NCBI GenBank assembly: GCA_016700135.1
Contig: CP065004.1
Coordinates: 600,001-632,000, forward strand
Reading direction: 5' to 3'
Length of the DNA: 32,000 bases
Source of the DNA: Candidatus Saccharimonadota bacterium
Lineage (GTDB): Bacteria > Patescibacteriota > Microgenomatia > UBA1406 > GWC2-37-13
Below are positions 2,358-30,104 of this stretch, piece after piece; the stretch's first letter is position 1, and each line of letters opens with the position of its first letter. The position numbers were made by a program, and so were the translations under genes. The notes below the pieces were generated by a model that was given only the letters and a program-made list of their open reading frames with translations, searched no databases and was not told the origin of the DNA.

Positions 2358-2459
2358 ATCAACATCACATCTTTCACATGACCTCTTCAGTGTGTTTCCG
2401 TCCATAGACGGCCCGCAACAAGCTGAAATTCTTTACTAATTACAAATTTGAATAAATTT

Positions 2460-3757
2460 ATGCCATCTTCAAATAAATCAAACCCTCAAGACGAGCTGTC
2501 TGAATCGCTCGATGTATCTTCTATGTTAGAAAAATACGAGGAAAAACCTATTGAAAAAGTTGAATCTACAAAACCTGCATCTGCCTCGGAGTCCGAAATG
2601 GTTAGTAAAGATGAGATTAGCGATAAATTAAAAGAAGACCTCAAATCCAGCTATGAAGCTGATGGTATTTTAGATGTAACATACGGAGGATACGGTTTTT
2701 TGAGAAAAGATTATACAGTGAATCCAGATGAGGATATTTATGTTTCAACCTCCCAAATCAGAAGATTTTGGCTTAGGAAAGGAGATCATGTCAGAGGTCT
2801 TGCCAGACCTCCAAAAGACGGTGAACGCTTTCACAGTCTGCTATTAATTAAAGAAGTAAACGGACGTGAGATGACTGAAGAAGAAAGCAGAAAGCGTAAC
2901 AAGTTTGATGCATTGACTTCCTTCATCCTCAAAAGCAAATCCAGCTTGAAACAGAACAGGATATACTTTCTACAAGAATCATTGATCTTGTAGCGCCAAT
3001 CGGCTTCGGACAGAGAGCACTCATTGTTTCTCAGCCGAAAGCAGGAAAAACAACTTTTCTTCGCGACATCGCTAAAGCGATAACCGCTAATCATCCCAAA
3101 GTGCACCTTATAGCTATTTTGATTGGGGAACGTCCGGAAGAAGTAACAGAAATTAAAAGATCTATTAAAGGGGAAGTTGCAGCATCACATTTTGATGAAA
3201 CTCCACGTCAGCAAACAAAAGTAGCAAATTTGGCACTTGAACGAGCAAAAAGATTGGTAGAAATGGGAGAAGATGTTGTTATACTTCTGGATTCCATCAC
3301 AAGACTCGCCCGTGCTTTCAATCTTAGTATCAATAATTCCGGACGTACATTATCTGGAGGTTTTGATCCCCAGGCTTTATATCCTGCTAAAAAGTTCCTC
3401 GGTGCAGCTAGAAACTGTGAGGAAGGTGGAAGTTTAACCATTATTGGGACAGCACTTGTGGGTACCGAATCCAGAATGGACGACCTGATTTATGAAGAAC
3501 TGAAGGGAACAGGCAATCTTGAAATCCATCTGGACCGAAAATTTGCTGAAAAACGTATTTATCCGGCAGTCGATATTACAAAATCAGGAACACGTCATGA
3601 GGAATTGCTGCTTGATCCTGAAACGCTGAAAAGAATTACAACATTGAGAAGAATGATGTCTCTTCGAACTTCAGAAGAGGGATTGATGGCTCTAATCGAT
3701 AAATTACCTAAAACAAAGAGTAATAAAGAATTCTTAGAATCTCTTCATAAGGGGTAA
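2460..3757 (+). pseudogene. rho: transcription termination factor Rho, frame interrupted by one apparent 1-nt deletion near 2919-2921
   Basis: The ORF-track pieces 2448..2993 (frame 0) and 3101..3757 (frame 2) are two parts of one Rho. The N-terminal part carries GILDVTYGGYGFLR...DIYVSTSQIRRFWLRKGDHVRG (RNA-binding domain). Frame 2 is open from 2909 and reads LHPQKQIQLETEQDILSTRIIDLVAPIGFGQRALIVSQPKAGKTTFLRDIAKAI. This includes the Walker A motif PKAGKT (3035-3052), which lies between the two listed ORFs. The C-terminal part carries LIGERPEEVTE...LLDSITRLARA...GGSLT. Confidence 0.85.
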
Positions 3758-4210: not shown

Positions 4211-4290
4211 ATTAAAAGACAATGAAAATGGTAGGATTGTGGTACAAGCTGTGATATAGTTAACTCTACTATTACTATTTGTCTTTTAAT
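4211..4290. promoter_or_regulatory. 12-bp perfect inverted repeat bracketing the trxB leader
   Basis: ATTAAAAGACAA (4211-4222) and TTGTCTTTTAAT (4279-4290) are exact reverse complements 56 nt apart. The right arm ends 1 nt before the trxB ATG. The repeat itself is certain; its function is unknown. Confidence 0.4.
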
Positions 4291-4291
4291 T

Positions 4292-7690: not shown

Positions 7691-7692
7691 TC

Positions 7693-9018: not shown

Positions 9019-9792
9019 GTTTAAAAATTAACAGAAAAACTTACGCCTGTCAATAGTATAAAATATCTAAGCTCTATAAAGCGCTATGACAAAGATTAAT
9101 TATCAGATTTTATATAAATCTGCTAAAGGTTGATACAAGTATTTTAGACTTTAATAAAAGGCTAGAAAAAATCAAATATTGAAAAGGTTGTCCTAACAGT
9201 ATCTCGAAAATGCCTACAATAGCAGTACAATTACGTTCTGACGTTAGGAATAATAGTGATTATTATCAAAAATTGAGACTATATCTTTATAATTGTTTAT
9301 ATAAGTACTATAGGGTCAAGTCTTATCTACTTCTTGGACAAAGGAAATCAGGAATAAGGTATTTTAACAAAGCCATATATAAATATAAGGGATATAAATT
9401 AACATTGATTATATATTAATATAAGTTATTAGATAACATGGGTCCAAACTAAATATTCAATGATAAAATCAAATATAGAATGAAAGAGCAATCTATATTA
9501 ATGATTTAAACTTATAGTAAATTAATAGTTGTGGGAGATATAGAACTCAGCTTAAATATGTAAATATAAGGCAACAATAATTGATATATGGGGCTTACAA
9601 AAGCCTAAAGACTTTATAATTCAATTGTGATTAATTTAAAATATGTTCGTACGTAATAATATTATATTGAGCCCTATAAATTAGAATAGTTACCGCTGGA
9701 ATTTTAAAATTTACGTTAGTACTTCTTTTAATTCTTATCGTCGTAACCATATATGATAATGTTAAGATTGTAAGGATTCTTTTATAACCTAC

Positions 9793-11409
9793 ATGTTATC
9801 ATTGTTAGTAGATATGGCTAAAAAAACGATTGATAATCTACAACACACAATCCATCGCAGACTTTTTTCAACGAGAGATATTAAAGAACTCATAGATCTG
9901 AAAAATGAATTGAAGGAATGGATTAATTGGCTTAAAGAGAGTGATAAGGTTACTAAATCAGAATATCAGTACCTTAGTAGTTTAGTTGAAGAGAAGGTGG
10001 AGGAAAGAAGTTCTCAATTTGAAAATCCGCTGAATCAAGTAAGTAATTTTAACACGAGTAGGAAAAAAGTATTTTCATTACTTCTGATTCTCTTTGCGTT
10101 ATTACTAGTAATTTTGAGTTTGTATTTAATATATAAGCCTGCAAACGTTGAAGTTGAGCGATCATCTGACGGAACCTTGCCCTTTAGAGGAACGCTGAAA
10201 AACGCGGAAGGAAATCCTATTGATACGAAAACTGATGTCATATTTCGTTTGTACGCTCAGCCTAATACAGGATCTCCATTATATGAAGGCAGATGCATTG
10301 GAACAGAAGGAATAGAACCGGATTATCGCGGTGAATTTACGGTTATATTAGGATCCGATTGTAGTATGGATCCTATTCCTGAAGCAGTCCTTACAAATGA
10401 AGTCATTTTTTTGGGAGTTGCTATTTCAACAGGAGAAGAGATTATGCCCCGCTATCGGATATTAAGCTCTACCTATTCACAAAATTCAGCTCAGGTATCC
10501 GGTAAATCGGTAGGAACAGGTACCAATGACATTCCATATCTTAATGAAAATGGATTAATACTCATTGAAGCCTCTGATCCAGCGCTAAAAGCAACGTCAG
10601 GAGAATTTACTATAGAAGGAGCTTCATTAAGCCTCAAAACAATTAGTGGGGGAGAGGGGAACATAACATTACAGCCCGATGCAGGAGGATATACACTCAT
10701 ACCTTCAGGGAATGTGGGGATAGGAATTTTTGAACCGACTTCAAAACTTGAAATAGCAGGCCTCGAACCATACAACCCAATAGCAAGCATTAAGAATATC
10801 AGTATTGAAGATTCTGAGAACACACAAGTTATGTCATTAGGACTTGCAACTCCAAGTACAAGTGACAATGCAAAATTTATTTCTTTTCGAGCTGATGTTA
10901 CAAAAGAAGAAGCCGGAGTTGAGGTGGGGTCAATAAGACTCAATAACAATGGGGTATCTTATGAAACAAAAGGAGCAGATTTTGCTGAGTATTTTGAAAT
11001 AAGTTCTCTGACAGAATATCCGTTAGGAACTATAATGGCAATTTCTGAGACAGGCATTTCTGCTGCAAAAAAAGAGGAGGTCCTTGTGGGAGCAATTTCA
11101 GGTACGGCCGGCTTTATCGGAAATGCAAAAGAGAATACCAATAACTCGCAGCTTATCGGTTTAGTAGGGCAAATTGATGTTCTAGTCACAAATGAGAATG
11201 GTCCGATCGAACGAGGAGCCAGTATTGGAATAGGCACTGTACCCGGATACGGGATATCTGTCCGAGCTACTCACATCGTAGGATATGCACTTGAAAACCC
11301 GAAAGCAATGCAATCTGAATTATGTCCTCAGGAGTTTCGTAGTGTAAAAGATACCTCTGGTAATCCAATAAAATGCGGCAAGGTTAAAATTCTTTTGCGC
11401 CCGAATTAG
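9793..11409 (+). CDS. membrane-anchored tail-fibre-like protein with Peptidase_G2/IMC-like C-terminal module
   Basis: 538 aa. Cytoplasmic coiled N-terminus and a TM helix at about 10069-10134. The fibre N-terminal motif LPFRGTLKNAEGNPIDTKTDVIFRLY...GEFTVILG and GNVGIGIFEPTSKLEIAG follow. GADFAEYFE (10975-10998) matches the ADYAEYFEW hallmark of the Peptidase_G2 IMC domain. An alternative start is ATG 9814 (MAKKT). Confidence 0.7.
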   Translation: MLSLLVDMAKKTIDNLQHTIHRRLFSTRDIKELIDLKNELKEWINWLKESDKVTKSEYQYLSSLVEEKVEERSSQFENPLNQVSNFNTSRKKVFSLLLILFALLLVILSLYLIYKPANVEVERSSDGTLPFRGTLKNAEGNPIDTKTDVIFRLYAQPNTGSPLYEGRCIGTEGIEPDYRGEFTVILGSDCSMDPIPEAVLTNEVIFLGVAISTGEEIMPRYRILSSTYSQNSAQVSGKSVGTGTNDIPYLNENGLILIEASDPALKATSGEFTIEGASLSLKTISGGEGNITLQPDAGGYTLIPSGNVGIGIFEPTSKLEIAGLEPYNPIASIKNISIEDSENTQVMSLGLATPSTSDNAKFISFRADVTKEEAGVEVGSIRLNNNGVSYETKGADFAEYFEISSLTEYPLGTIMAISETGISAAKKEEVLVGAISGTAGFIGNAKENTNNSQLIGLVGQIDVLVTNENGPIERGASIGIGTVPGYGISVRATHIVGYALENPKAMQSELCPQEFRSVKDTSGNPIKCGKVKILLRPN

Positions 11410-14627: not shown

Positions 14628-14952
14628 TGTATATGTATAAATATTTGAGAAAATTAAGTATTTTTAAAGGAGTGAGAATAGGTTGATAGACAGTATTGAT
14701 AAATTCTTCTTTATAATTTATAGAGCCCTAAATTAATAGATTTTACTTCATAATTTTGCGTACGTATCATAGGAGTGAAGCAACGTATTAATAAGAGTGC
14801 GAAATATAATTTAGGGCATAAAGAAAGGATTTAATAACTTTCAAAATAGTTGAACAAAGTCTCGAAAATACTGAGATCTAATTAATAATATTAACAATCA
14901 GGCCTAAAAAAGCCTTATTCGCACTGGACATCATAGTTTGTTTTGTGTTTTA

Positions 14953-17900
14953 ATGAAAACATATACCAAACTTTTTATGTCGACTGAACAAAAGGATTAC
15001 AACCTGTCTCCAAAAGAATTTGCACACCTGGTAGGTGTATCTTCATCTACAGTTCGACGATGGGAAGAGGAAAAAGTTTTTACTTCAGTTCGTACTCCGT
15101 CAGGATATCGAAAATTTGCGTTGAGCGATGTTCCTAAAGCGAAAGAATACAAAAATCAAGTCAATGCAATAAAAAAACAAAAAAGTCAGGAGCATATTTA
15201 CAGCATTACATCAAAGCAAGCTATTCAGAAACATAATTACCCGGTAGTGGACTTTATTTTTAAACGTGCTGCTGTATTGTCACTGGCTGTTTTACTTATG
15301 ATAGTTACTGCTGCGGCTGTCGCTACTTATCCTGCTGTGAAATCTATTATGTCGGACAGGTATCAGGCCAAGTCAGAAAAGACGTTAGGTGAAAAAGAGG
15401 GCAACATTTCTGAAACGGATGACATGAATGTACTTGCAGCTGAATCAAGCCGTTTAGCCCGTTCCATCATTAGTAATATCGGGTGGGATTTTCGCTCTAC
15501 AGTAAAAATAGAAGATCTACAGGTGAACGGGCCCTCGGTATTTTTAGATGATATTGATGCACGAGGGCAGAATCTAGATTTGGGGACAGGTAGAATTACG
15601 GCATCAAATGTCCTGTATGGGGTCGAAGCAGGCAAGGGTATCAGTATTGCAGGCACGACACAAAGCCCTTTGATAACCAATATCGATCCAGGCTCGGCAC
15701 AGGAAATTTTTAAGAATATCAAGGTTGGTTCAAATACAATTACTGCATCAAGCAATACTGACACGTTAACATTCGAGCAGGGAAGCGGGATTACTCTGAC
15801 TGTAGACGGTAAAAAAGTAACCATTGCAAGTTCACAATCAGGATATTCATACTGGACGACAGAAGTAGACGGAGTAAGTTACGACAATATAGAAGATGGA
15901 TCGTCGGTTAATTTTGTAAGCGGAGATGACATTACCGTTACGCGGTCGGCTGCAAATGAATTAACATTTAATCTCCAGGATGTTATTGATACCGTAACGG
16001 GAATAGACTTAACCGCAGGCGGTTATCTTACTGGTACCAATGCAACAATAACTTTTGATAACTTCTCGGTAGACGCAAGCGGAAATATCCGTATTGCTGC
16101 CGGGTCCGATTTTTATATCGGCAATGTGCAGTTGGGAAGTATTGGATCTTCTTCAGGAGCATCTTTAATTGGCGTAGACGGCACTAATATTTCACAGTCA
16201 GCTTCAGGAGATCTACAGACAGTTCTTGAAAATATGTCTGCTGCAATGGGATCAGGCTCTTCCAAATGGACCATTGCTTCTGATGTGATTTATCCGAATA
16301 ACTATTCAACAGCAGATTTCTCATTGGGAGGTACAACTCCAGCAAGTTCTCCGTTCGGTATAGATATTGATCAGAATATTCTGTACTTGGGGGACGGAGC
16401 AAATGATGCCAATACGCCATCTCTCTATTTCAAGGCATCGGATGGCTCAAATTGGGGAACTTTATCTTACTCGGATTCTGATAGGTTTGTTTTTTCAGGT
16501 GGTGATGTTGTTGTCGACGGTGTGATTTATGCGGGTTCAGGAACACAGCAAATCACTTTAGCAAACGGTATGCTGAATCCGAATGCGCTGCCGCTTATTA
16601 CATCCGGAACTTCACCGACAACAAGTTCCGTCTCAGGTTTTGAGATCTTAAGTAATCAAATAGGTCTTATCCGAGGCTGTTCAAACGGTGAGGTTTTAAA
16701 ATGGAATTCGACAACTTCACGGTGGACCTGTAGCCCCGATTCCTCCGGTGTATCTGGCGTTGTGGACGTACAACAGGACGGCTCTATCCCTGCAGGTTCT
16801 GCTGACTCTCAGTTTGATACGATCAATTTCGTAAATAATTTTAACCTTTCTGAAAATAGCTCTGGGGTGATTGATGTAGACCTTGCAAGCAATATCGGTA
16901 TAGGTACAGCTCCCTCAGGTTCATATGCTCTCACTGTAAATGGTGCAACAAATACAAGTACTTTGTATCTCTCAGGTACCCAGGTAACTGCTTCTGCAAA
17001 TGAGATAAATCTACTGACTGGCCGTACCGGGACATTGCTTGACACCAATAATGTAGCTACACAGTTATCAGCCTGGGATCAGAATGCTTCAGATGATGTA
17101 ACGGCTTTTACAGGACTGAGCGATACTCCTTCAAGTTATTCGGGCCAGGCAGCGAGAGTCGTACGGGTGAATGCAGGAGGTACGGGACTTGAATTTGTTG
17201 ATCCTGCAACCCTTGGGACGAATTACTGGGGGAGGAATTCAGGGAGCGGGTATGTATATCCTTCGGTCGTGACAGATAGAGTCGGAATCGGGACTTCGAC
17301 ACCCACCCAGATGTTAGATGTTCAGGGAAACATAGCAGTATCAGGTACCGTAGACGGACGTGATGTTTCAGCTGACGGATCAAATCTTGACACTCTCTAC
17401 ACGACGATCGGACTTTCGGCTTTGACGAGTGGAGAGGTCGATCAACTCGAGAACATCGGAGCTACAACAATCAGCAGTACCCAGTGGGGATATCTTGGGT
17501 CTCTTAATCAGAGTGTAAGTACTACAGATGCCGTTACTTTCACAACGATCAATACGGGACAGGGAGCCTATGAGTTGTATGCGATGGACCAGAATGTGAG
17601 GACATCTGACACTGTGCAGTTTGCAGGACTTCAGATTGGGGGAGCAACGCCGAATATCACCAGTATCGTTTCAGGAACGGGAACAGATTGGTCAGGGGCC
17701 GTTGATACCGCACTTGCTACGCAGCTTTCTATCAAATCATACGTCGATGCACAAATCGGAGGGGCAGCATATACTTTTGAAAACGGAATTTCTGAATCAG
17801 GAAATACTGTCACTCTTGGCGGTGCTTTAAATCAAAGTACACGATTATACGATGGGTCATACGAATATCTGTATATGAATACAAGCACAGGGAATGTCGG

Positions 17901-20769
17901 AATCGGTACAACAACGACAAGTACTTACAAATTAAACGTTAGTGGATCTTTGAATGCATCAAGTCTTTACTTGACTGGCAGTCAAGTAACTTCAAATGCT
18001 TCAGAATTAAATTTGCTTGATGGAGTAAGTCTTACATTAACAGCAGGTGAATTTAATTTATTGGACGGCAGGTCCGGGACATTGCTTGACACCAATAATG
18101 TAGCTACACAACTATCAGCCTGGGATCAGGACAGTTCAAATGATCTGATAACAACGGATATAGGAGTAACCGTACAAGGTTATAACGCAAATACTTCATT
18201 CCTCGGTCAGACTATTGAAAGCAGTGAGATTACGGACGGAACAATTACCACTAGTGATTTTGCCAGTACTTTGACGTTTGCATCCGGAGCATTCCTGGAC
18301 TTGTCCTCTATTGACTATGGTTCAACTGCTCCTCAGGGATTGAGATTACCGAATGCGACTTCAGCCAATCTTGCTTCAAATAATCCATCAGTGGGTGAAG
18401 GGTATTTAGCATATGATACGGACGTTAATAAAGTAAAAATATTTAACGGTTCTTCCTGGACGGATATTAGCGGAGCCTCAACCACGCTTCAGGAAGCTTA
18501 TGAAGCAGGCAACTCAATTCTCATGAATGCCGGACAGGGGAATATCAGAATTTCTAACGACGGTTCTAATGAACTATTATTCCTTGATGAAGCAACAGGA
18601 TATGTAGGGATAGGGAACACAGCTCCGGGATACAAACTGGATGTGTCAGGAGATATTCGAATTGCAAGCGGGAGTGATTTGTATATCGGAACAACGGCTT
18701 TAAGTTCTATCTCGGGTGCGGGTCTTATCGGAGTTGACAGTTCAAGTATTTCAAGTAGCAGCGCTTCGGATTTGCAATCAGTTCTTGAAGATTTGGATAG
18801 TGCTATCGGCGGAGTAGGAAATTCATCAATTTCAGCAGTCGGTAATATTACATCAGGTGATGCATTCACAAGCGGAACCCCCGGTTCCGAATTGTACTTC
18901 ACTTCATCCGGTGTTCTCGGTCTCGGAAACACCGCCTCATCAGCTGCCCGAATAGAGTTTTTCAATGACACCATAGATAGAATTTCGTTGCTCAGCTCTT
19001 ATGTCGGAATCGGAACCACTGCTCCTGTCGCGGCTCTTGATGTCCAGGGAGCAATCAGGCTTGGTGCAAGTGGGGGAATATCTGATACATTGAATACGAT
19101 TTCAGCTGGAACGGCTCCGAGTGCAAGTCTTTATTGGGGGAGTTACAGAATATGTACGACCGGAGATTCTTGTGCAGGGGGAGCAGGCGGAGGGGTAGAC
19201 AGTACGGGAGGGACAGGCTACTTAGCAAAATTTACGGATCAATATAATGTTGAAAACTCTATTCTCTATGAATCCGGAGGGAATATTGGAATAGGAACTA
19301 CTGTAACCGGTACCTATAAAGTAAATGTAAGCGGATCTTTAAACACTACAACCCTTTATCTGGCAGGTACACAAGTTAATGCAACGGCTACAGAGATCAA
19401 TTTGCTGTCGGGAAGATCAGGGACATTACTGGATACAAGCAATGTAGCTACACAACTATCAGCATGGGATCAGGATAGTTCAAATGATCTGATAACAACC
19501 GATATCGGATCAACAGTGCAGGGTTACAATGCCAATACTTCATTCCTCGGTCAGACCATTGAGACGGGAGAGATCACAGATGGGTCAGTACTTCCTGCGG
19601 ATGTAGATGACAACGGTCAGACACCTGGGGACGGACAGGTACTGACATACAATAATTCGAACAGTAAGTTTAACTGGGTTGACGCGACAAGTTTGGGTAC
19701 GAATTATTGGGGGAGGAATTCAGGGAGCGGGTACGTATATCCTGCGGTCGTGACGGACAGGGTGGGTATTGGTAATACGGCTCCTACTGAGGAGTTGGAT
19801 GTAACCGGAGATATAGCGGTGAGCGGAACAGTAGACGGACGTGATATTTCAGCAGATGGGTCAAGCTTGGATACATTGTATACAACGATCGGACTTTCAG
19901 CATTGACATCAGGAGAGGTGGATCAGTTGGAGAATATTGGAGCTGCAACGATCAGTACGTCACAATGGGGATATCTGGGCGCGATGAACCAGAGTGTAGC
20001 AACGACTGATGCAGTAACATTTACGACGATCAACACGGGACAGGGAGCGAATGAGCTGTATGCAATGGATCAAAATGTACGAACATCTGATACGGTACAG
20101 TTTGCAGGACTGCAGATCGGAGGAACGACACCTTCAATCACAAGTATCGTATCTGGAACGGGGACAGACTGGTCAGGTGCAGCTGATACTGCACTTGCCA
20201 CACAACTTGCCATCAAATCATATGTTGATAATGAAATTGCCGGAGTAACAATAGATGTTTTTACCACCTTTACTGCAGACAGCGGGAGTACAACTGCTAA
20301 TACTGCAGGGGACACACTGACAATAAACGGTTCAGGAAGTATTACAACTTCGATATCTGGAGATACACTGACAATTACCGGAACGGATAACGATACAACC
20401 TATTCCGCAGGAAGCGGCCTCAGTCTCGCAAGTACTACTTTCAGTCTGGGAGGAGCAATATCACAGCCGACACGTCTCTATGACGGATCATATGAGTATC
20501 TTTATATCAACAACAGTACAGGGAATCTTGGTATAGGGACAACATCGACAGGCACATATAAGTTAAATGTCGGCGGGTCTTTGAATGCATCGTCTCTTTA
20601 TCTTGGCGATACTCAAGTGACATCAACAGCTTCTGAATTGAATTTGCTTGACGGAGTAAATCTCACACTTACTGCTTCAGAATTTAATTTACTGGACGGC
20701 AGATCAGGGACATTACTTGACACAAACAATGTCGCAACACAACTTTCAGCCTGCATCAAACAGCAGTAA
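14953..20769 (+). CDS. giant fibre protein, intact N-terminal 5.8 kb: MerR-type HTH + TM anchor + repeat fibre
   Basis: Track ORF 14938..20769 starts at TTG; the first ATGs are 14953 and 14977. LSPKEFAHLVGVSSSTVRRWEEEKVF...SGYRKF (14998-15117) is a MerR/HTH_17-type helix-turn-helix. The TM helix is AAVLSLAVLLMIVTAAAVATYPAV (15268-15339). The rest is Gly/Ser/Thr-rich, with recurring GIGTTxP..KL(N/D)V.G and ATELNLL.GRSGTLLDTNNVATQLSAWDQ modules. The TAA at 20767 arises from frame loss inside such a module, so it is not a natural end. Confidence 0.85.
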   Translation: MKTYTKLFMSTEQKDYNLSPKEFAHLVGVSSSTVRRWEEEKVFTSVRTPSGYRKFALSDVPKAKEYKNQVNAIKKQKSQEHIYSITSKQAIQKHNYPVVDFIFKRAAVLSLAVLLMIVTAAAVATYPAVKSIMSDRYQAKSEKTLGEKEGNISETDDMNVLAAESSRLARSIISNIGWDFRSTVKIEDLQVNGPSVFLDDIDARGQNLDLGTGRITASNVLYGVEAGKGISIAGTTQSPLITNIDPGSAQEIFKNIKVGSNTITASSNTDTLTFEQGSGITLTVDGKKVTIASSQSGYSYWTTEVDGVSYDNIEDGSSVNFVSGDDITVTRSAANELTFNLQDVIDTVTGIDLTAGGYLTGTNATITFDNFSVDASGNIRIAAGSDFYIGNVQLGSIGSSSGASLIGVDGTNISQSASGDLQTVLENMSAAMGSGSSKWTIASDVIYPNNYSTADFSLGGTTPASSPFGIDIDQNILYLGDGANDANTPSLYFKASDGSNWGTLSYSDSDRFVFSGGDVVVDGVIYAGSGTQQITLANGMLNPNALPLITSGTSPTTSSVSGFEILSNQIGLIRGCSNGEVLKWNSTTSRWTCSPDSSGVSGVVDVQQDGSIPAGSADSQFDTINFVNNFNLSENSSGVIDVDLASNIGIGTAPSGSYALTVNGATNTSTLYLSGTQVTASANEINLLTGRTGTLLDTNNVATQLSAWDQNASDDVTAFTGLSDTPSSYSGQAARVVRVNAGGTGLEFVDPATLGTNYWGRNSGSGYVYPSVVTDRVGIGTSTPTQMLDVQGNIAVSGTVDGRDVSADGSNLDTLYTTIGLSALTSGEVDQLENIGATTISSTQWGYLGSLNQSVSTTDAVTFTTINTGQGAYELYAMDQNVRTSDTVQFAGLQIGGATPNITSIVSGTGTDWSGAVDTALATQLSIKSYVDAQIGGAAYTFENGISESGNTVTLGGALNQSTRLYDGSYEYLYMNTSTGNVGIGTTTTSTYKLNVSGSLNASSLYLTGSQVTSNASELNLLDGVSLTLTAGEFNLLDGRSGTLLDTNNVATQLSAWDQDSSNDLITTDIGVTVQGYNANTSFLGQTIESSEITDGTITTSDFASTLTFASGAFLDLSSIDYGSTAPQGLRLPNATSANLASNNPSVGEGYLAYDTDVNKVKIFNGSSWTDISGASTTLQEAYEAGNSILMNAGQGNIRISNDGSNELLFLDEATGYVGIGNTAPGYKLDVSGDIRIASGSDLYIGTTALSSISGAGLIGVDSSSISSSSASDLQSVLEDLDSAIGGVGNSSISAVGNITSGDAFTSGTPGSELYFTSSGVLGLGNTASSAARIEFFNDTIDRISLLSSYVGIGTTAPVAALDVQGAIRLGASGGISDTLNTISAGTAPSASLYWGSYRICTTGDSCAGGAGGGVDSTGGTGYLAKFTDQYNVENSILYESGGNIGIGTTVTGTYKVNVSGSLNTTTLYLAGTQVNATATEINLLSGRSGTLLDTSNVATQLSAWDQDSSNDLITTDIGSTVQGYNANTSFLGQTIETGEITDGSVLPADVDDNGQTPGDGQVLTYNNSNSKFNWVDATSLGTNYWGRNSGSGYVYPAVVTDRVGIGNTAPTEELDVTGDIAVSGTVDGRDISADGSSLDTLYTTIGLSALTSGEVDQLENIGAATISTSQWGYLGAMNQSVATTDAVTFTTINTGQGANELYAMDQNVRTSDTVQFAGLQIGGTTPSITSIVSGTGTDWSGAADTALATQLAIKSYVDNEIAGVTIDVFTTFTADSGSTTANTAGDTLTINGSGSITTSISGDTLTITGTDNDTTYSAGSGLSLASTTFSLGGAISQPTRLYDGSYEYLYINNSTGNLGIGTTSTGTYKLNVGGSLNASSLYLGDTQVTSTASELNLLDGVNLTLTASEFNLLDGRSGTLLDTNNVATQLSACIKQQ
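17212..18120 (+). repeat. segmental duplication, copy A (coding)
   Basis: 17212-17748 is colinear with 19693-20229 at a constant offset of 2481 nt with no indels. 17815-18120 is colinear with 20446-20751 at an offset of 2631 nt. The encoded proteins are highly similar (LGTNYWGRNSGSGYVYP...SIKSYVD; LYDGSYEYLY...QLSA). Confidence 0.85.
19693..20751 (+). repeat. segmental duplication, copy B (coding, with an extra 150 nt)
   Basis: Partner of 17212-18120. It carries a 150-nt insertion around 20245-20395 (TIDVFTTFTADSGSTT...). The differences between the copies are mostly third-codon-position changes. Confidence 0.85.
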
Positions 20770-23700
20770 TGATGCAATTTATCACATCGCTTACGTCAGG
20801 ATATCTTCCGTACTATGACGGATCAAATCTGGCCAATAGTACCATATATTTGACAGAGGCAATCTTGGCATAGGGACAACAAATCCGTCACAAGCTTGAT
20901 ATCGCTAATTCAACTTTAACGAGAGGATTTAATGTTGTGATGGATACAGATACGGCTGCATACACCTATGGAGGGTATACTGAAATTACAAATGCTTCCG
21001 GTGACTCAGTCGGCCAGATGGTCGTTACTAATCCTCAGCTGGAAGATATTCCACTGGTTATCACGCCAATGTGGAGGCAGGTGCAATGCTTACGGCTTCT
21101 ATACTAATACAACTTCTTCCAACGGGATATTCTATCGGAGTATATCAAACGTTTATGGAGCCGGCGCATCCTCAAATGCGACATGGCGGAATGTTCATGG
21201 CAGAAACTCCGAACATGGAAGCTTACGGTATTTATGCTGCGCAAATCGATACCGGAGGTGGTAAGGCATGGGCAGGATATTTTGACGAAGGAGATGTATT
21301 TATTGCAAATAATGTCGGAATCGGAACCACTTCGACGAGCACATACGCTTTAAATATTAACGGATCGTTAAATACCACCTCATTGTATTTGGCGGGATCT
21401 CAAGTTAGTGCTACTGCCACTGAACTGAATCTGCTTTCAGGAAGATCAGGGACACTTCTGATACAAACAATGTATCGGCACAACTTTCAGCCTGGATCAA
21501 AACAGCAGTAATGATGCACTTATCACATCGCTTACGTCAGGATATCTTCCGTATTATGACGACTGAACCTGGCAAATAGTGCTTTCTACCAGCGGGCGGA
21601 AATATCGGAATCGGTACGACAAACCCCACAGCAAAGCTTCAACTCATTCAAGAGGCAGACTTCCGTACACGGAATTAGCCTACAGAAGGCAGCACTGAAA
21701 GAATGAATTATATGGGGACAGGATCAAATACGTATCTCGACCTTAATCAAAATACGGCAATATCAGAAATACCTCTGCAACAGGAAACATGTGCATATAA
21801 CACTTCCGCGAAGAATCAGCTTTCGTCAACAGATGGCACAGTAGGAGGATTTAGGTTTACTACAAATAATGGTGATAGTTTGGAGATTACAAAGGATGGG
21901 TATGTTAGTATCGGAACGACTACTCCTGCATACGCTCTCGATGTCAACGGTGATATCCGGATAGTAAGCGGTAGGAACTTTATAGTTACGGAAGCGCAAC
22001 GCTAGAATCATACATATTCTGAAGATAACTACATAACTGACGGACAGACATTCACGGCTAGTATTGATGCCCTAGATCAACAGGTAAAGATCTTGCTAAT
22101 AGGAAGCAGGAATGTGGCAGGATCAGACTACCTATATCAATCCAATTAACTTTACCAGTCTGGCCATTACCGATACGGGGGAGAATGGGATCGAACAACG
22201 AACCAAATAACCCGCTTTCTGTGGTCGGGAATGCAGACTTTACGGAAATGTCGGTATCGGAACAACTGAGGTAGGTACATACGCTCTGAATGCGTTGCAG
22301 GGAGCAAATTTTAACAGCATCTATAGGTGGTACGGCAATTGCAGCGACGGCAACTGAACTCAATATTTCTCAGGGCAACAGTCTCAACAGCAGAACCGGA
22401 ATTATCTTGATAACTCAATGGTCACGAACGGATGAATTGTGTTTGGCAACGGTGCCACTTTCACACAAGATGCCGCTACTTCTTTCTGGAATGATAGCAG
22501 CAATTATCTGGGTATCGGTACAACTGCACCGCGCTACTTGATCTATTTGGTACAACAGCAGCATTTCAGATGTCATATGACGCCAGTAATTACGGTAAAT
22601 TCACGATCGGAATGACGGCACACTTACCTGGCGGAGTCAAAGTGCCGGTGGCTCATCACTAATATTGCCCGTTTCTCGACAACAGGAGTAATATCGATGT
22701 CCTGACATCATTCAATGCGACGGGAGATCGTCAGTATCGCAAATGATCTTCAGTTTACCAATCAGTCGGCAGCTATATCAAGACTCTCGGACCTCTTACC
22801 ATCGAAGCCGGAGAAAGTTATGAAAGCAATAACCTGAAATTGAAAACATACAACAGCGGAAGAATAGTGTTTGATGCGCAGGGGAGTGGCACCCAATCAG
22901 GCTCAAAACTGGGATCTTGTCACTTCTACCACAGCCTTGAATTTTGAAAGTGGTCTTTTCAATATTGATACAACAAACAGTAGAATCGGAATTGGTACAA
23001 CAGCACCGGGGCACAAACTGGATGTTTCAGGAGATATTAATGTATCTTCCGTATACAGAATTGGAGGAACTACGGTACTATCTCACAGTTCATCAGGTGA
23101 AAACTGCATTATGGGATTGGATGCAGGTAGTACAGCACCACATCAGAGCTACACAATTAACATTGGTCATGGCAGCATTAATCTAAATAGTACTAACGCC
23201 GATCAAAATACTTGTAGGAGCATGGGCGGACAAAGTGTTACCAGTGGAAAATAATAATGTCCCGATAGAAATGATTCCGGCGCAACACTGACTACAGGAT
23301 ACAACAACTTTATCGGAGGATCTTGGGCTGGTATTGGTTCACGGCAGCATATAACGTAGCTCTGGGTTATTCTGCAGGAGGAAGTAATACAAACAGGAAA
23401 CAGCAATACGATGGTGGGTGCATGCTGATGTCACGTCAGGAGGTAATTACAATACAGTACTGGGCTGTTCAAAACGCAGCTTCAGCATATAGTTCGTCTA
23501 TCATGCTGGGTTACTCTGCCGTAGCTACTGCATCAAACCAATTTCTCGTGGGTGGAAATAATGCAAACGGATATATTAATGATACGTATTTCGGTCGGGG
23601 AGTAGTAGTGCTACGCCGAATGACATAACACTGAATGCCACCGGAGGATCAGTGCAGTGATATTACCGGAGCAAATATGATTCCCGCAGGCGGTAAAGCA

Positions 23701-24378
23701 ACGGGAATGCAGACGGCGGAGATATTATTTTTAAGACTTCCGATGTCGGGCTCGTCAGGGACCACGTTGCAGTCACTTACTGAAAAATGAGATTGACTGA
23801 TGAAGGAAGACTCGGAATCGCACTACAGCCTCGGATGCAACCTCGATGTCAACGGCAGCGGTAACTTTACAAGTCTGTGTGTCGGAGGAACCCAAATCTC
23901 AGCGACAGCAACAGAGCTGAATATTCTTTCAGGGCTACCATTTCAACAGCAGAACTGAATTATCTGGACAACTCAACAGTCATGAACGGAGGAATTGTGT
24001 TTGGGAACGGTGCAAATTTCACGCAGGATGCAGCAAATTTCTTCTGGAATGATACATCAAAATAGATTGGGTATCGGGACTACGGCACCGAATACGTCAT
24101 TGGAATTGTTCGGAAGTACGGCAGGATTACAATTTGTCATATGATGCAATTAATTACGGTACCCACGATCGGGAGTGATGGGACATTGACATTGGCAGGA
24201 GTAAGTGCAGGCGGATCACTTACGAATATTGCGCGATTCTCAACATCTGCTGTCAACATTGATGTTCCGACATCATTTAATGCAGCCGGTGATGTGTCTG
24301 TCGCATATGATTTGTACTTCACGAATCAGACAGCATCATACATAAAATCGGACGGGCCTTCAGTATCGTGTCCAGTGA
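20770..24378 (+). pseudogene. frame-broken continuation of the giant fibre gene
   Basis: Fibre motifs continue but hop between all three frames. Fragments in the ORF track are 21071..21511 (NVGIGTTSTSTYALNINGSLNTTSLYLAGSQVSATATELNLLSGRSGTLL), 21703..22005, 22290..22541, 22871..23254 (SRIGIGTTAPGHKLDVSGDINV), 23323..23628 (Hep_Hag-like LGYSAVATASNQFLVGG), 23877..24065 (TAELNYLDNSTVMNGGIVFGNGANFTQDAANFFWND) and 24141..24386 (GSDGTLTLAGVSAGGSLTNIARFSTS...). No antisense ORF is convincing. Confidence 0.7.
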
Positions 24379-25746
24379 AGCCTTGAGAACAATGATCTGA
24401 CCATCGAGACCTATGGGACAGGAAATATTGTTCTGAAAGCAAACAGCGGAAATATATGGGCAGACGGATCTGCAGTCGGTATCGGGACAACTGCTCCTGC
24501 ACGGACATTGCATGTAATCGTGGGTTCGACGGCACCGCCGGTCAGATTCCAAGATTCAGACGGGTACTGTGAGATCAATCCTACAACGACTACCTGGACG
24601 TGTACCTCTGATGCTACATTAAAGGAAGATGTTGAGACACTTTCAAGCATCTATAATCTTGAAAAACTCAATCAGCTGAGACCTGTTTCATTCAAGTGGA
24701 AAACTCAAAATGATGATGATAAGCGCTTCGGACTTATTGCCCAGGAAGTTGAAACATTGTTCCCCGAATTTGTACAGACGGATGAAAACGGATTGAAATC
24801 TGTATCCTACGGATCATTTACCCCGATTCTGATTTCTGCCGTGCAGGAGCAGCAACTTCAGATTGAAGGTCAGCAAAGCAGTCTCACAAAACTGACGGAG
24901 GAGCTTGCACTTGTAGTAAATGAAGATACGGGTGTAGTAACAAGCAGTCTTATTGATACTCTTACTGAGGAAACAGAGAATATCGCTGATCGGACGGCTG
25001 CGGTTGAAGGAGAGGTTGAAGCACTGGCGGAAAAAGACAGTCAGATTGAGACACGGCTTATTACCATTGAAGAAAGACTCAATGCGCTTGAACAGGCATC
25101 TGCATCAGCCTCGCTCGATAATTTGAATGATCGTGTAGGATTCCTTGAACAATTATTTACTGGTATTCAGGCATCCGGTTCTGCTGATTTGAGTACGTAT
25201 CTGGCCGAGCTCATCGATGGTCAAATTCTCGGTCTTCAGTCAGATGAAGCAACTCTCTCTGCATTGACAGTGAGCGGAGATACGAATGTAAACAATCTTG
25301 CCGTAACAGGGGAGATCAGCAGCGGACTTTTGATTATCAACGGATTTGATGACTCACTCGCGACACCAGCTGCTACTATCTCTACGCTGGGAGGATCTCT
25401 CAAGATTCAACATCTCGGACTTGGAGAAATCGAATTTATGGCAGGTAAGTCAAAAATTGATACGGACGGAGACTTTATCATGTTAGAAGGAGATTTGGTA
25501 ATAGAAACAGGGGTGATCAAAGGAAATGATCAATTCAGAGGAATTGACGTGCCGGCAGTATTTAGCTCAACTTACCTTGATATCGATTTTGAGAGCATGA
25601 AAGATACGGACGAGTATGCTGTAAACATTACTCCGACTTGGCTTACAAATGTAGCAGTCATAGAGAAACGGACGGATGGTTTCCGTCTCCAGTTCTCAGT
25701 ACCTGCACCTTTGAACGGAAAAATCGACTGGATGATTATTGAATAA
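24379..25746 (+). CDS. C-terminal part of the giant fibre gene: Peptidase_S74 intramolecular-chaperone domain + coiled coil + beta-rich terminal domain
   Basis: The frame is open from 24379 with no ATG. The track start 24508 is a TTG inside a GIGTTAPARTLHV motif, so this is a continuation and not a separate gene. TSDATLKEDVETL...LRPVSFKWK...RFGLIAQEVETLFPEFV...GLKSVSYGSFTPILISAVQEQQ is the S74 (endosialidase chaperone) signature, at about 24604-24870. Confidence 0.85.
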   Translation, partial: SLENNDLTIETYGTGNIVLKANSGNIWADGSAVGIGTTAPARTLHVIVGSTAPPVRFQDSDGYCEINPTTTTWTCTSDATLKEDVETLSSIYNLEKLNQLRPVSFKWKTQNDDDKRFGLIAQEVETLFPEFVQTDENGLKSVSYGSFTPILISAVQEQQLQIEGQQSSLTKLTEELALVVNEDTGVVTSSLIDTLTEETENIADRTAAVEGEVEALAEKDSQIETRLITIEERLNALEQASASASLDNLNDRVGFLEQLFTGIQASGSADLSTYLAELIDGQILGLQSDEATLSALTVSGDTNVNNLAVTGEISSGLLIINGFDDSLATPAATISTLGGSLKIQHLGLGEIEFMAGKSKIDTDGDFIMLEGDLVIETGVIKGNDQFRGIDVPAVFSSTYLDIDFESMKDTDEYAVNITPTWLTNVAVIEKRTDGFRLQFSVPAPLNGKIDWMIIE

Positions 25747-25760
25747 AATCTACCGTTATT

Positions 25761-28700
25761 ATGAAAGTAAGGATTAAGCAAATAAAGAAACTACTGATTG
25801 ATTTTCTCCGAAAACGGAAAAGAACTGTCATGTTGGCAGGTGGAGGTTTGATTCTTGCTTTCATAATTATTGGATTTATTGATAAACAAATAGGTTTATT
25901 TAAGGCAAGTTCTTTGGATCCTGTCGCATACTGGAAATTTGATGAGGGATACGGTACGGCCGTGAATGATTCGTCAGGAAACGGAATGACCGGAACTCTG
26001 GGGACAGGTTCGTCTGCTCCTACATGGCAGGCTAAAGAGTATTGTATAAGTGAAAAGTGTTTGAAATTTGATGGGTCAGAAGATTATGTACAGCGGGCAG
26101 ATAATGCAGCCCTTGATATTGAAAGCGAACTTAGTATTTCGTTGTGGATTAAACCTACTACCCTCAATGGCGGTACGTACTATACGTTGGTGTATAAAGG
26201 GAACTCAACGAATGAAGCTAACTATTATCTTCAAATCTATGGAGATGAACTTAATTTCGGAAACTACCAAGCCGGATGGAAGGGCACGGCTACGACTGAT
26301 GCAAATATTCCGACAAATCAATGGACTCATGTGGCTATGACTTATTCAGATGCCTTAGATGATATCGATTTTTATGTCAACGGTATATTGAAGACGGATA
26401 ACGGACAGGACCATGACATGGTATTATCAGCAAACAATCAACCGTTTTACCTGGGTTCATCTGCTGCAGAGCTGGAATTCTATGAAGGATTTCTGGACGA
26501 AGTAAGGATATATTCATATGTACGTACTCCCGATCAGATAAAAATGGACTTTCAGGGAGGAGGATCTCATGGCTCAAGTATTCGGATAGGAGATGCTGAT
26601 TACAGTTTTTTGAGTCAGGGGCTGATCACTTATTGGAAAATGGACGAGGCAGGAGTTGATGCTGAAGGAGAGACTCTTTCCAACTCCTCAGGTACTTCTC
26701 ATAATATTACACTCTATGGAGATAATTCGACAGGAGACAACGGGACAGGAATGGATTGTACTGCAGAAGGTGTTTACGGTACGGGATGTCAGTTTGACGG
26801 AGTGGATGATTATGTAAATCTGAATAGATTTAATTACTTTGACGGAACGTCGGAGATGACGGTAAGTGTATGGATCAAACCCGACTTTACAACAACGGAG
26901 GCGAGTAATAGATATATTTGGGCAGTGTCGAATTTCAGTTTGATGTTCAATACCAATCAAGATGACTTTACTTTATCTATGAATCCGACGGGAGGAAGTC
27001 TCAACCTGAATACTTCAGGACTCACCTGGACCCAAAATACATGGCATCATATAGCAGCGACTTATAACGGGTCCCAAGCCATTATCTATTGGGATGGGGT
27101 AGCAGTCGCGACAGGTAATGCATCGGGAGTTCTCAACCCCTCAGGAGCAACAGAATATTTGGGAGCATTCAATACGACCAGTTACCATTGGCTCGGCGCA
27201 ATGGATGAAATCAGAACGTATCAAAGGGCACTTACTGCGCAGGAGATACAGTCACTCTATAATTGGTCTCCCGGACCTGTCGGTTATTGGAAACTGGATG
27301 AAGGTTCAGGCACTACTGTTTATGACAGCAGCGGCAACGGGAATAACTCCAGTGCTTGGTCCGGGAATACCAAATGGGTCCAGGGGAAATACGGTTCTGC
27401 AACATCGCACGACGGAAGCGGAGATCGGATCACGATTCCGAGTTCGACAACACTCGATTATCAACCGAAATATACTTGGTCAGCTTGGCTCAATCCCACA
27501 GCGGGGAGTTATGAAATATTTGATAAAGCCGCTGACACAAACAACGGATGGAAAATCGGATCGAATGGTAATAAATATGCACTCACAATTTATTATACCG
27601 GTGATGATTTGATGTGCACTGTGCCAGCTGTAAACATGACAGTCGGAGAATGGCAGCATATCGCCTGGACGTGGGATGGTACAACGAGTTGTACCGGTGT
27701 GAAATTTTATAAAAACGGGAACTTAATTTCTTTTGAATCCACTACATCTCCTACCGGTACACGAGAAGTTGATACCGGTAAACAAATTCTCATCGGCGGA
27801 AACGGATATACCGATTATCCCGGTTTGATTGATGATTTTAAAATCTACAACTACGTCAGGACACAGGAACAAATTCTTGAGGATATGAATGCCGGTCATC
27901 CCACCATCGGCACACCTGTCGGCTCAACGGTTCTGCACTTGAGGATGGATGAAGGATACGGAACGATTGCCCATGACAGTAGTCCTCAGGGCAATGACTC
28001 AACAATCAGCGGTTCTACTTGGACAAATGACGGAAAATCCGGAAAAGGAATGTCTTTCAACGGTACATCAGGGTATGTAAATGCAGGTTCGAATGAATCT
28101 CTCGATGATTTGTCGACAGTGACTGTCAGCGCCTGGATCTATCCTACAGGTTATGGGGAAGGCGGGTTCGGCAGAATTGTAAATAAGAGCAATACCAGCA
28201 ATACCAATTGGGCACTTACCCTTGTGAATGATTCTTCACAGCAAAGCATACGATTCTTTAAAGAGCGTGATACGGCATCAAATGCAACTCAGGTTACTGC
28301 TGCAAACGGTTCTATACAGCTGAATCGTTGGTATCATGTCGTCGGAGTATATGATGAAAGTGCCACTCCGCGCATGAAACTATTCATAGACGGAGTTGAA
28401 GCCTCATATGCCGAACAGATAGAAGGAACGGGTACGCCTGACACAGATGCCAGTTACAGTCTGACGGTTGGGAATCGCCTGGGTGGAGACAGGACATTTC
28501 AGGGTATCATTGATGAAGTCAAGATCTACCCTTTTGCTCTTACGGCAGAGCAAATTAAAATGGATCTTCAGGGAGGCAAGTCACTGGTTCTTGGTGCACA
28601 GAGCACCGGAGTAGGGGGGACATCTCCATCAAATTCATCCGACCGTTCATATTGTATACCCGGCGATACCTCTACCTGCAGTGCTCCCGTACTTGAACTT

Positions 28701-30104
28701 GATTTTGAAGAAGCAACGGGACAGACGGCATATGATACAAGTACGAACGGGAACAACGGTCAATTAGGCTCAGCCAGCGGAGTTGACAGTTCGGATCCAA
28801 CATGGGGACTCGGACCTGACCATATGGCCGGAAGTGCCGTAGAGCTGGATGGCACTGATGATTATGTTCGTGTTGCCGACTCTGCATCACTTGATTTTCA
28901 GAACGGAAGTATCTCAGTTAGTATGTGGGTTTATTGGAACGGGAGCAGTAATTACGAAAGGATTTTGAGTAAAGCCAATACGGGATCACCTTACCACGGT
29001 GATTTTTATTTACAAATTAACGGAGCCGAAAGTCCTCAAAAAATAATTGGCCGATTTAAAACAGGGTCAGGTACGAGTGAAAATCCAATAGTTGAGACTA
29101 CTACTGATTTCCCTACAAATCAATGGGTTTTTGTTTCTGCAACTTTTAATACAAATACAAATACCAGCAGGCTGTATATTAACGGGGCACTTATTGACGA
29201 GGATACATCGAGCACGGAAGAAATTGTAGACAATTCCGGATTCTTGTGCGTCGGATGTAACTCATCTTTTACATCCTCAAATTTTAACGGGAAAATCGAC
29301 AATGTAAGGATTTACGACTACGCCAGAACTCCCGCTCAAATAGCCTGGGAATACAGTAAAGGGGCACCAATTGCACATTATCGTCTGGATGAATGTCAGG
29401 GGACAACAGCCAATAACTCTGCATTCACACCCACGGGTACAGCGGGGAACAACGGGACAATAACTGCCGGATCCTCCGGCAACACTAGTGTCGGGACGTG
29501 TACGTCCGGAAGCGGCACGGAAATGTGGGCAAACGGAGCATCAGGTCAATGGGAGGCAAGCCTTGATTTTGATGAGGTAGACGATAGGCTGGTCATTCCT
29601 GATATGGATCTCGGACAGGAGTTTACGGTTTCATTTTGGTTCAACTCAGTTGACAATACCGGCACGGGATATCAATATATGTACAGTCATGGGACGATTC
29701 AGACCGCAAATTCACTCAATATTTACTTTAATGAAGATAGTAATGCCATCAATACTCCCGGCACCATCCTTGTGAGCATTATGGATAGCAATGATGGTAT
29801 CCCGCTCCTTTCTCAGGATGTAGAGACACAAATCGGATTATCTGACAGCACGTGGCATCATCTTGTGGTGACTGTTACCTCTTCAGGAACAAAGGCATAT
29901 ATTGACGGAGTCCAGCAGATTTCGTATACAAACGGAAATAATGGAATCAATCCTTCAGGCAGTATCTATATCGGTGCAAGAAATGATCTTAATGTGACTT
30001 GTTTTTATGACGGTAAACTCGATGATGTTCGTATTTATAACTATCCCTTAACCACAACTCAGATAAAGGAACTATATAAAGGCGGAGCGGTTGTTTTCAA
30101 GTGA
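25761..30104 (+). CDS. membrane-anchored protein with six LamG (Laminin_G_3 / concanavalin-A-like) domains
   Basis: 1447 aa with an N-terminal TM helix VMLAGGGLILAFIIIGFI. There are six modules. Each opens with (Y)W(K/R).DEG.G....D.SGNG and closes with (L/I)D(E/D)V(R/K)IY.Y.(R/L)T..QI. The closing motifs lie at about 26490, 27200, 27830, 28510, 29300 and 30020. Confidence 0.85.
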   Translation: MKVRIKQIKKLLIDFLRKRKRTVMLAGGGLILAFIIIGFIDKQIGLFKASSLDPVAYWKFDEGYGTAVNDSSGNGMTGTLGTGSSAPTWQAKEYCISEKCLKFDGSEDYVQRADNAALDIESELSISLWIKPTTLNGGTYYTLVYKGNSTNEANYYLQIYGDELNFGNYQAGWKGTATTDANIPTNQWTHVAMTYSDALDDIDFYVNGILKTDNGQDHDMVLSANNQPFYLGSSAAELEFYEGFLDEVRIYSYVRTPDQIKMDFQGGGSHGSSIRIGDADYSFLSQGLITYWKMDEAGVDAEGETLSNSSGTSHNITLYGDNSTGDNGTGMDCTAEGVYGTGCQFDGVDDYVNLNRFNYFDGTSEMTVSVWIKPDFTTTEASNRYIWAVSNFSLMFNTNQDDFTLSMNPTGGSLNLNTSGLTWTQNTWHHIAATYNGSQAIIYWDGVAVATGNASGVLNPSGATEYLGAFNTTSYHWLGAMDEIRTYQRALTAQEIQSLYNWSPGPVGYWKLDEGSGTTVYDSSGNGNNSSAWSGNTKWVQGKYGSATSHDGSGDRITIPSSTTLDYQPKYTWSAWLNPTAGSYEIFDKAADTNNGWKIGSNGNKYALTIYYTGDDLMCTVPAVNMTVGEWQHIAWTWDGTTSCTGVKFYKNGNLISFESTTSPTGTREVDTGKQILIGGNGYTDYPGLIDDFKIYNYVRTQEQILEDMNAGHPTIGTPVGSTVLHLRMDEGYGTIAHDSSPQGNDSTISGSTWTNDGKSGKGMSFNGTSGYVNAGSNESLDDLSTVTVSAWIYPTGYGEGGFGRIVNKSNTSNTNWALTLVNDSSQQSIRFFKERDTASNATQVTAANGSIQLNRWYHVVGVYDESATPRMKLFIDGVEASYAEQIEGTGTPDTDASYSLTVGNRLGGDRTFQGIIDEVKIYPFALTAEQIKMDLQGGKSLVLGAQSTGVGGTSPSNSSDRSYCIPGDTSTCSAPVLELDFEEATGQTAYDTSTNGNNGQLGSASGVDSSDPTWGLGPDHMAGSAVELDGTDDYVRVADSASLDFQNGSISVSMWVYWNGSSNYERILSKANTGSPYHGDFYLQINGAESPQKIIGRFKTGSGTSENPIVETTTDFPTNQWVFVSATFNTNTNTSRLYINGALIDEDTSSTEEIVDNSGFLCVGCNSSFTSSNFNGKIDNVRIYDYARTPAQIAWEYSKGAPIAHYRLDECQGTTANNSAFTPTGTAGNNGTITAGSSGNTSVGTCTSGSGTEMWANGASGQWEASLDFDEVDDRLVIPDMDLGQEFTVSFWFNSVDNTGTGYQYMYSHGTIQTANSLNIYFNEDSNAINTPGTILVSIMDSNDGIPLLSQDVETQIGLSDSTWHHLVVTVTSSGTKAYIDGVQQISYTNGNNGINPSGSIYIGARNDLNVTCFYDGKLDDVRIYNYPLTTTQIKELYKGGAVVFK

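Follow-up and report, generated by a model that had tools for sequence, protein, structure and literature searches.

An indel-dense stretch in the giant surface-fibre gene of a circular Patescibacteria genome is very probably uncorrected Nanopore consensus

Introduction

The natural decay of a bacterial gene is dominated by substitutions. A gene that has acquired about 50 indels in this way should also have acquired several hundred substitutions, along with signs of relaxed selection and nonsense codons. On the other hand, breaks in a reading frame can be introduced during assembly. Unicycler fills in raw long-read consensus wherever a path is missing from the short-read graph (Wick et al. 2017, PMC5481147).

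The sequence CP065004 corresponds to the MAG Kalu_18-Q3-R12-55_MAXAC.194_uni, assigned to Candidatus Roizmanbacteria (genus UBA1450), and is circular with a length of 1,448,136 bp (Supplementary Data 3, PMC8012365). The coverage of this MAG is 19.5 for Illumina and 14.4 for Nanopore reads (PMC8012365). It was reassembled with Unicycler v0.4.6, with Nanopore R9.4.1 data and the options --no_correct, --no_pilon and --mode bold, and post-assembly polishing is described in the study for the Flye assemblies only (PMC8012365). Here we have analysed a window of 32,000 nucleotides of this genome, in which a giant fibre-like gene is broken in its middle by a dense series of small indels, and discuss the most probable origin of these breaks.

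Results

Structure of the giant gene

The giant gene lies on the + strand and can be divided into three parts. The intact N-terminal two-thirds (14938..20751) consist of sequence of short-read grade, and encode a MerR-type helix-turn-helix (Pfam match with E = 6.7e-9), a hydrophobic stretch that was taken by eye as a putative membrane anchor, and fibre-like repeat modules. The corresponding ORF (14938-20769) encodes 1,943 aa, and only short fragments are found downstream of it. The error-laden middle part (20752..24382), hereafter designated the patch, harbours ~50 net one- to two-base indels. The frame reopens at 24379 and remains open to 25746, so that the C-terminal part (24383..25746) is again intact and shares its frame with the N-terminal part. 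It carries a Peptidase_S74 intramolecular-chaperone domain, identified at residues 34-89 of the 24508 ORF with a score of 59.5 bits (E = 3.9e-16). The Pfam gathering cut-off is 22, and a C-terminal domain scoring above this threshold places the gene product among the Peptidase_S74 fibre proteins. A Pfam scan of the frame-corrected middle region of 1,208 residues revealed no domain. The neighbours of the gene are housekeeping genes, as would be found in a cellular Patescibacteria genome. A megablast search of 20000-25000 against phage records gave no match, and the locus is regarded as cellular. Neither the Rfam nor the tRNA scan of the window gave any hit.

Number of frame breaks

Frame breaks were counted with and without a guide sequence. 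The guide-free count relied on dynamic programming with codon usage learned from the intact parts of the giant gene. This programme introduced 30-38 frame switches in 20752-24378; with a penalty of 6 or higher, both the upstream and the downstream control remained free of switches. At least 30 switches were necessary for the + strand to stay open over 20752-24382. On the best path, the patch scored 0.33 per codon for coding, compared with 0.29-0.43 in the intact flanks and 0.05 in shuffled sequence. The switch count itself was only modestly lower than that of shuffled sequences (30 vs 42±4.6) and is a weak statistic alone; the distinction between a broken gene and non-coding DNA is made, in favour of the former, by the coding score and by the homology described below.

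The guided count was carried out by frameshift-aware alignment with P0001 and the L002 ORF as guides. As a result, 50 net frameshifts were identified in 20752-24378, on average one every 74 nt, and the in-frame TGA at 22433 was the sole stop codon in the 3.6-kb patch. No frameshift was present in the C-terminal control. A single one was counted in the upstream control and would derive from P0001 itself, a guide whose own N-terminus is frameshifted. The initial annotation of this DNA had recognized more than 24 frame breaks by eye inside an otherwise clean gene. The breaks are real, but were undercounted, with the guided alignment raising their number to ~50. The absence of breaks in the 5.8 kb upstream and the 7.6 kb downstream of the patch, described at the same time, was borne out by the frame-switch controls. 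Net deletions exceeded net insertions, with 35 and 15, respectively, over the whole patch, and 24 and 6 at the DNA level against L002.

Boundaries of the patch

DNA alignment to L002 revealed 30 indel events in 20753-22189, and the last two indels of the patch at 24359 and 24382. Uncompensated indels were absent from 18680-20751 and from 24383-27926, corresponding to indel-free flanks of 2.1 kb before and 3.5 kb after the patch. Both boundaries are thus sharp, and the first and last uncompensated indels (20753 and 24382) agree well with the limits proposed in the initial annotation (20752 and 24378). Sharp boundaries with essentially error-free flanks are a property of an unpolished long-read consensus patch. 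The indel rate is ~1.4% over the patch (50 net frameshifts in 3.6 kb), and ~2% in the 1.4 kb of the DNA-level comparison.

Relatives of the giant gene

Two relatives each have a single continuous gene whose middle is colinear with the frame-corrected patch. Amino acid identity of the corrected patch protein amounts to 89.9% with the L002 orthologue and to 75-79% with P0001, and the protein is colinear with both guides, in agreement with the earlier claim that amino-acid motifs are preserved after frame correction. Outside the patch, the identity to P0001 at the amino acid level is 90.6% in the N-terminal part and 83%, without frameshifts, in the C-terminal part. The closest relative found was UBA1450. 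A large protein search identified nothing closer than P0001, and the relatives recovered from metagenomes with the frame-corrected protein as query shared 48% identity or less, with no short-read contig from the same species among the matches. The real gene underlying the patch is predicted to be a single open frame of ~3,600 codons extending from 14938 to 25746.

Substitutions and selection in the patch

We then consider the substitutions that accompany the indels. Among the 161 codon differences from L002 in 20752-22189, 122 (76%) are at third positions, and the corresponding share in the left intact flank is 82%. Changed codons are synonymous in 76% of the cases in this region and in 85-87% in the intact flanks. 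No stop codon generated by substitution was found in the 1.4 kb of 20752-22189 compared at the codon level. Unselected substitutions over these 1.44 kb were estimated at ~21 relative to L002, to be compared with the 30 indel events. The initial statement that indels outnumber substitutions, the opposite of pseudogene decay, is supported by these values. Small indels that dominate over few substitutions, together with an underlying functional gene recognizable from its colinear orthologues and its retained selection signature, are what an unpolished long-read consensus patch displays. With indels exceeding unselected substitutions in sequence under coding-like selection, the profile is that of long-read consensus error and not of mutation.

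One alternative is a genuine and recent pseudogenisation, in which the ~50 small indels would be real and would have followed, for example, a loss of selection or the appearance of an indel-prone mutator. The frame breaks do stand in the deposited sequence, and the orthologues in UBA1450 and L002 have one frame break each in this gene, indicating that breaks are not unheard of in the family. In addition, natural mutation in bacteria is also deletion-biased, so that the deletion bias of the patch alone does not discriminate between the two readings. However, decay should have brought many substitutions and relaxed selection. The differences in the patch instead remain synonymous and at third positions as in the flanks, the estimated unselected substitutions are fewer than the indels, and one stop codon is present in 3.6 kb. 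Decay would also not be expected to halt abruptly at both ends, and the N-terminal 1,940 and C-terminal 455 codons are perfect. Moreover, the assembly method predicts just such a patch. Recent inactivation, which had been raised in the initial annotation, is thus not supported, and we consider it very unlikely. If the indels were nevertheless real, an indel-specific process would have struck the central third of the gene with almost no substitutions and left both ends intact. To our knowledge, no mutational mechanism introduces ~50 indels with almost no substitutions into the central third of a single gene, and this possibility seems less probable still.

Sequence context of the indels

Many of the breaks had been described in the initial annotation as shortened homopolymers. 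Its examples are present in the sequence: CCTGGGATCA is found at 17072 and 18119, GCCTGGATCAAA at 21490, and the one-base deletion at 21459 also appears in comparison with L002. Some of the breaks are indeed of this type, as 8 of the 18 single-base deletions are in runs of two or more bases, but this does not represent an enrichment over the 43% background. With 44% observed, an enrichment of errors in homopolymers was therefore dropped. The absence of such enrichment is unlike polished Nanopore assemblies, and would be expected of a raw consensus of few reads.

Frame breaks elsewhere in the window

The window contains a frame break outside the patch as well. The rho gene (2448..3757, + strand) is split by one single-base frameshift near 2921-2925, where the sequence reads TCC and TCCC would restore the frame. 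The Rho_RNA_bind and ATPase domains are found on separate ORFs, and the break can be seen in the three-frame translation and in the DNA. The fused rho product aligns in one stretch to the Rho structure 3l0o (E = 6.8e-118). The rho frameshift is another small error, isolated and separate from the patch. A further broken stretch was considered at 30.1-32.0 kb, where no ORFs had been listed, but was rejected, as a single long frame is open across the region and continues past the end of the window.

Discussion

Our results indicate that the patch is very probably an assembly artefact, a raw Nanopore consensus within a giant surface-fibre gene that was never corrected by accurate reads. An unpolished long-read patch had been the preferred reading in the initial annotation, and is supported by the indel excess, the retained selection, the sharp boundaries, the deletion bias and the Unicycler settings. 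The pipeline applied to this MAG is one that inserts long-read consensus without short-read polishing. In terms of mechanism, the short-read graph would have had no path over ~3.6 kb in the middle of the gene, and Unicycler would have bridged the gap with the consensus of a few spanning Nanopore reads. With no later correction, ~1.4% small indels and roughly 1% substitutions would have been left in the sequence.

We could not find long exact repeats inside the giant gene, and its modules are only 63-81% identical to each other. At 19x Illumina coverage the short-read gap is thus not explained by repeats, and long exact internal repeats were dropped as its cause. The gap may have arisen from strain-level variation in the number of modules, or from a loss of short reads on extraction by mapping to an earlier bin.

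Strain variation could also have acted on the consensus itself. If haplotypes were mixed in the long-read consensus, the patch would still be an artefact, with real population variation beneath it. Module content does vary among the relatives, with ~4.3 kb of extra modules in L002 and ~0.4 kb in UBA1450, and heterogeneity of this kind would account for a break in the short-read graph despite the absence of exact internal repeats. However, the polymorphic rate recorded for the MAG is low (0.0024; PMC8012365), and the mixing of haplotypes should lead to substitutions and codon-length indels, not mainly to one- to two-base indels. We therefore regard a blurred consensus of several strains as highly unlikely.

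A bank of silent fibre cassettes used for recombinational variation, also put forward in the initial annotation, or programmed frameshifting or recoding is extremely improbable: although the gene is modular, likely encodes a surface-exposed fibre, a kind of protein prone to antigenic variation, and gave a weak Pfam match to Mtd_N below the threshold, the patch matches the middle of one continuous gene module for module in two relatives, the identities among modules leave no near-identical donor/acceptor pairs, near-identical partial copies apart from the expressed locus were not found, neither a reverse transcriptase nor a recombinase was present among the 15 larger ORFs scanned, and ~50 shifts that go either way, in varied contexts and with no common motif, are far beyond known recoding, in which shifts are few, fixed in direction and placed at a conserved slippery site.

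As uncorrected consensus, the patch is mainly a quality flag and brings no new biology. It would mean that raw Nanopore consensus is present, in one stretch or more, in a genome deposited as complete, circular and of high quality. Because of the patch, a gene of ~3,600 residues is read as two products, of 1,930 and 412 residues, with many small ORFs besides, and gene counts, estimates of pseudogene numbers and surveys of giant Patescibacteria surface proteins would be misled. The same unpolished Unicycler procedure was applied to five other MAGs in the study (PMC8012365), which may hold similar patches.

When compared with known systems, the giant gene resembles the tail-fibre-like giant surface proteins with Peptidase_S74 in its C-terminal Peptidase_S74 domain and its long fibre-like repeats, and the annotation of its relatives reads "tail fiber domain-containing protein". 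It differs from phage tail fibres in starting with a MerR-type helix-turn-helix and a putative membrane anchor, which phage fibres do not have, and from the tail-fibre-like proteins in its position beside housekeeping genes of a cellular Patescibacteria genome. With a bacterial pseudogene in neutral decay, the patch shares multiple frameshifts and an excess of deletions, but it displays neither an excess of substitutions nor relaxed selection, and has a single stop codon and sharp boundaries. The fragmentation of genes by indel errors in Nanopore R9.4.1 assemblies (discussed in PMC9262707) is similar in that deletion-biased one- to two-base indels split a long ORF into numerous short ORFs. The residual errors of polished R9.4.1 assemblies are concentrated in homopolymers and are genome-wide, whereas those of the patch are neither, being confined to 3.6 kb. 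Errors without homopolymer enrichment and restricted in this manner fit a raw low-depth consensus better than a residue left after polishing. The closest likeness is thus to the unpolished consensus bridge of Unicycler, a discrete stretch rich in small errors between flanks of short-read grade (PMC5481147); bold mode and the omission of Pilon are common to the assembly of this MAG, and the patch itself would be such a bridge.

Organization of the giant fibre gene and its surroundings

The giant fibre gene (14938-25746, forward strand) is represented in the ORF listing by an N-terminal ORF of 1,943 aa (14938-20769), only short fragments between 20769 and 24379, and a frame that reopens at 24379, the same as that of the N-terminal ORF, and continues to 25746. 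A MerR-type helix-turn-helix domain is found at the start of the first ORF (14938-15400), followed by a hydrophobic stretch that, read by eye, is a putative membrane anchor, and a Peptidase_S74 intramolecular-chaperone domain is present in the final portion. The product is a fibre-like surface protein with a predicted membrane anchor and a C-terminal Peptidase_S74 domain, and a single gene of ~3,600 codons, extending through the broken stretch, is expected. The combination of a DNA-binding domain with such a large extracellular fibre is unusual; the MerR domain also occurs in four relatives from the protein hit list (P0003, P0004, P0016 and P0024).

The gene is clustered with others for large, putative surface proteins; the cluster is syntenic in UBA1450 and includes a Peptidase_G2 autoproteolytic-domain protein (9793-11409), a 1,447-aa protein with six Laminin_G_3 repeats (25761-30104) and a long ORF leaving the window from 30.1 kb; giant LamG-domain proteins are encoded downstream of the fibre gene. 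Housekeeping genes (fmt, rho, thioredoxin reductase, glutamate dehydrogenase) are neighbours, and megablast of 20000-25000 against phage records gave no match, indicating that the locus is cellular and not phage. G+C content falls to 0.27 in the 1-kb bin 9001-10000, which spans the gap between a PaaX-like gene (end 9018) and the Peptidase_G2 gene (start 9793); Rfam and tRNA scans of the window detected no RNA family or tRNA in this gap.

Frame breaks at 20752-24378

The initial annotation had described a run of frame breaks at 20752-24378, and we recovered it both with and without a homology guide. A codon-usage dynamic programme trained on the intact parts of the fibre gene required 30-38 frame switches across the stretch, and zero, at penalties of at least 6, across the upstream 5.8 kb, the C-terminal portion of the gene and the gene that follows. 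As shuffled versions of the stretch needed ~42 switches, the switch count alone is weak evidence. Much stronger is the coding score per codon along the best path, which was 0.33 in the stretch, as against 0.29-0.43 where the sequence is intact and 0.05 for the shuffles. Being near the intact level, this score identifies the stretch as coding sequence with a repeatedly slipping frame.

A search with a roughly reconstructed protein identified an intact 2,286-aa orthologue, P0001, at the syntenic locus L001 of Candidatus Roizmanbacteria UBA1450, and a scan of species-representative genomes gave a closer relative, contig L002 (88-91% DNA identity), which has SPAdes-style naming and a fibre gene open except for one break. 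Frameshift-aware alignment guided by both proteins revealed 50 net frameshifts in 20752-24378 (deletions to insertions, 35:15) and none in the C-terminal control. One frameshift of unlocated position in the upstream control, with P0001 as guide, was attributed to the frameshifted N-terminus of P0001 itself. The frame-corrected protein displayed 89.9% amino-acid identity to L002 and 75-79% to P0001. The sole in-frame stop of the stretch, TGA at 22433, replaces a glycine codon of both orthologues in the motif (T/S)GGIVFGNG; a wrongly called base in the consensus is the simplest explanation.

The orthologues in L001 (about 9990-10060) and L002 (about 5370-5498) carry one frame break each, both at or adjoining GIGTT.PGYKLDV, a conserved motif that marks module starts. 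Misassembly at repeat junctions could account for them, or the breaks may be real. Relative to window 22189-24070, L002 contains ~4.3 kb of surplus fibre modules (3535-4876 and 6708-9689), and UBA1450 has ~0.4 kb extra near L001 13737-14123, so module number varies between close relatives. L002 (CAZDDM010000009.1) is colinear with the Roizmanbacteria locus across the fibre gene and the next gene, and a second contig, L004 (CAYMVU010000015.1), carries a copy of the C-terminal part (82% identical). Both are labelled 'uncultured Gammaproteobacteria bacterium' and are probably mis-binned or mislabelled.

Boundaries and spectrum of the differences

The boundaries were set by DNA alignment to L002. 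Uncompensated indels were absent from 18680-20751; 20753-22189 contained 30 indel events, of which 24 were deletions and 6 insertions, almost all 1-2 nt long; the final indels were at 24359 and 24382, with none thereafter up to 27926. With the intact L002 gene setting the reading frame, 76% of changed codons in 20752-22189 were synonymous (third-position differences, 122/161) and 87% at the broken right end, 24070-24382 (42/56), against 87% in the intact left flank (167/203, 82%) and 85% in the intact right flank (62/77). No stop had been created by substitution in 20752-22189. By estimate from these comparisons, ~21 unselected substitutions would accompany the 30 indels in these 1.44 kb.

Natural mutation in bacteria consists mostly of substitutions, and real decay with ~50 indels should therefore have erased the signature of selection. 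Pseudogenisation, one of two biological alternatives raised in the initial annotation, is thus contradicted by the substitution spectrum, as well as by the sharp boundaries at both ends. The other, a bank of silent cassettes, conflicts with the stretch being colinear, module for module, with a single open gene in both relatives. Recoding is excluded by ~50 shifts in both directions. The specific sequence examples noted earlier are present in the window, but the proposed tendency towards shortened homopolymers did not hold, as 8/18 single-base deletions lay in runs of at least 2, equal to the 43% background.

Origin of the broken stretch

CP065004, the MAG Kalu_18-Q3-R12-55_MAXAC.194_uni, is one circular contig of 1,448,136 bp from genus UBA1450 (Singleton et al. 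2021, PMC8012365, Supplementary Data 3), with coverages of 19.5 (Illumina) and 14.4 (Nanopore). MAGs marked '_uni' were reassembled from reads mapped to the earlier bin, using Unicycler v0.4.6 with --no_correct --no_pilon --mode bold, and later polishing is described for Flye assemblies only (PMC8012365). When two contigs have no connecting graph path, Unicycler uses the long-read consensus itself as the bridge (PMC5481147). Unpolished bridging of this kind would be expected to leave a well-delimited run of errors with sequence of short-read quality on either side, as observed.

Together with the substitution spectrum and the sharp boundaries, this assembly history supports the unpolished long-read patch favoured initially, and we consider 20752-24378 very probably an assembly artefact. 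The short-read graph would have had no path here, and a long-read consensus would have been inserted as a bridge and left unpolished. Exact repeats were ruled out as the cause of the gap, the internal modules being only 63-81% identical to each other. Strain variation is possible, because module content differs between relatives; another possibility is the loss of short reads during extraction by mapping to a fragmented bin. A metagenome scan with the frame-corrected protein and a large protein search found no same-species short-read contig.

In the same assembly, rho (2448-3757) is split by a lone single-base frameshift near 2921-2925, reading ACTTCCTTCAT; the frame is restored if TCCC replaces TCC, and the protein with one base restored can be aligned without interruption to Rho structures (3l0o, E = 6.8e-118). 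The break is probably an isolated assembly error, given that the assembly was made with neither read correction nor polishing. The main value of the present result is as a warning on the six Unicycler-built MAGs of the Singleton et al. 2021 study.
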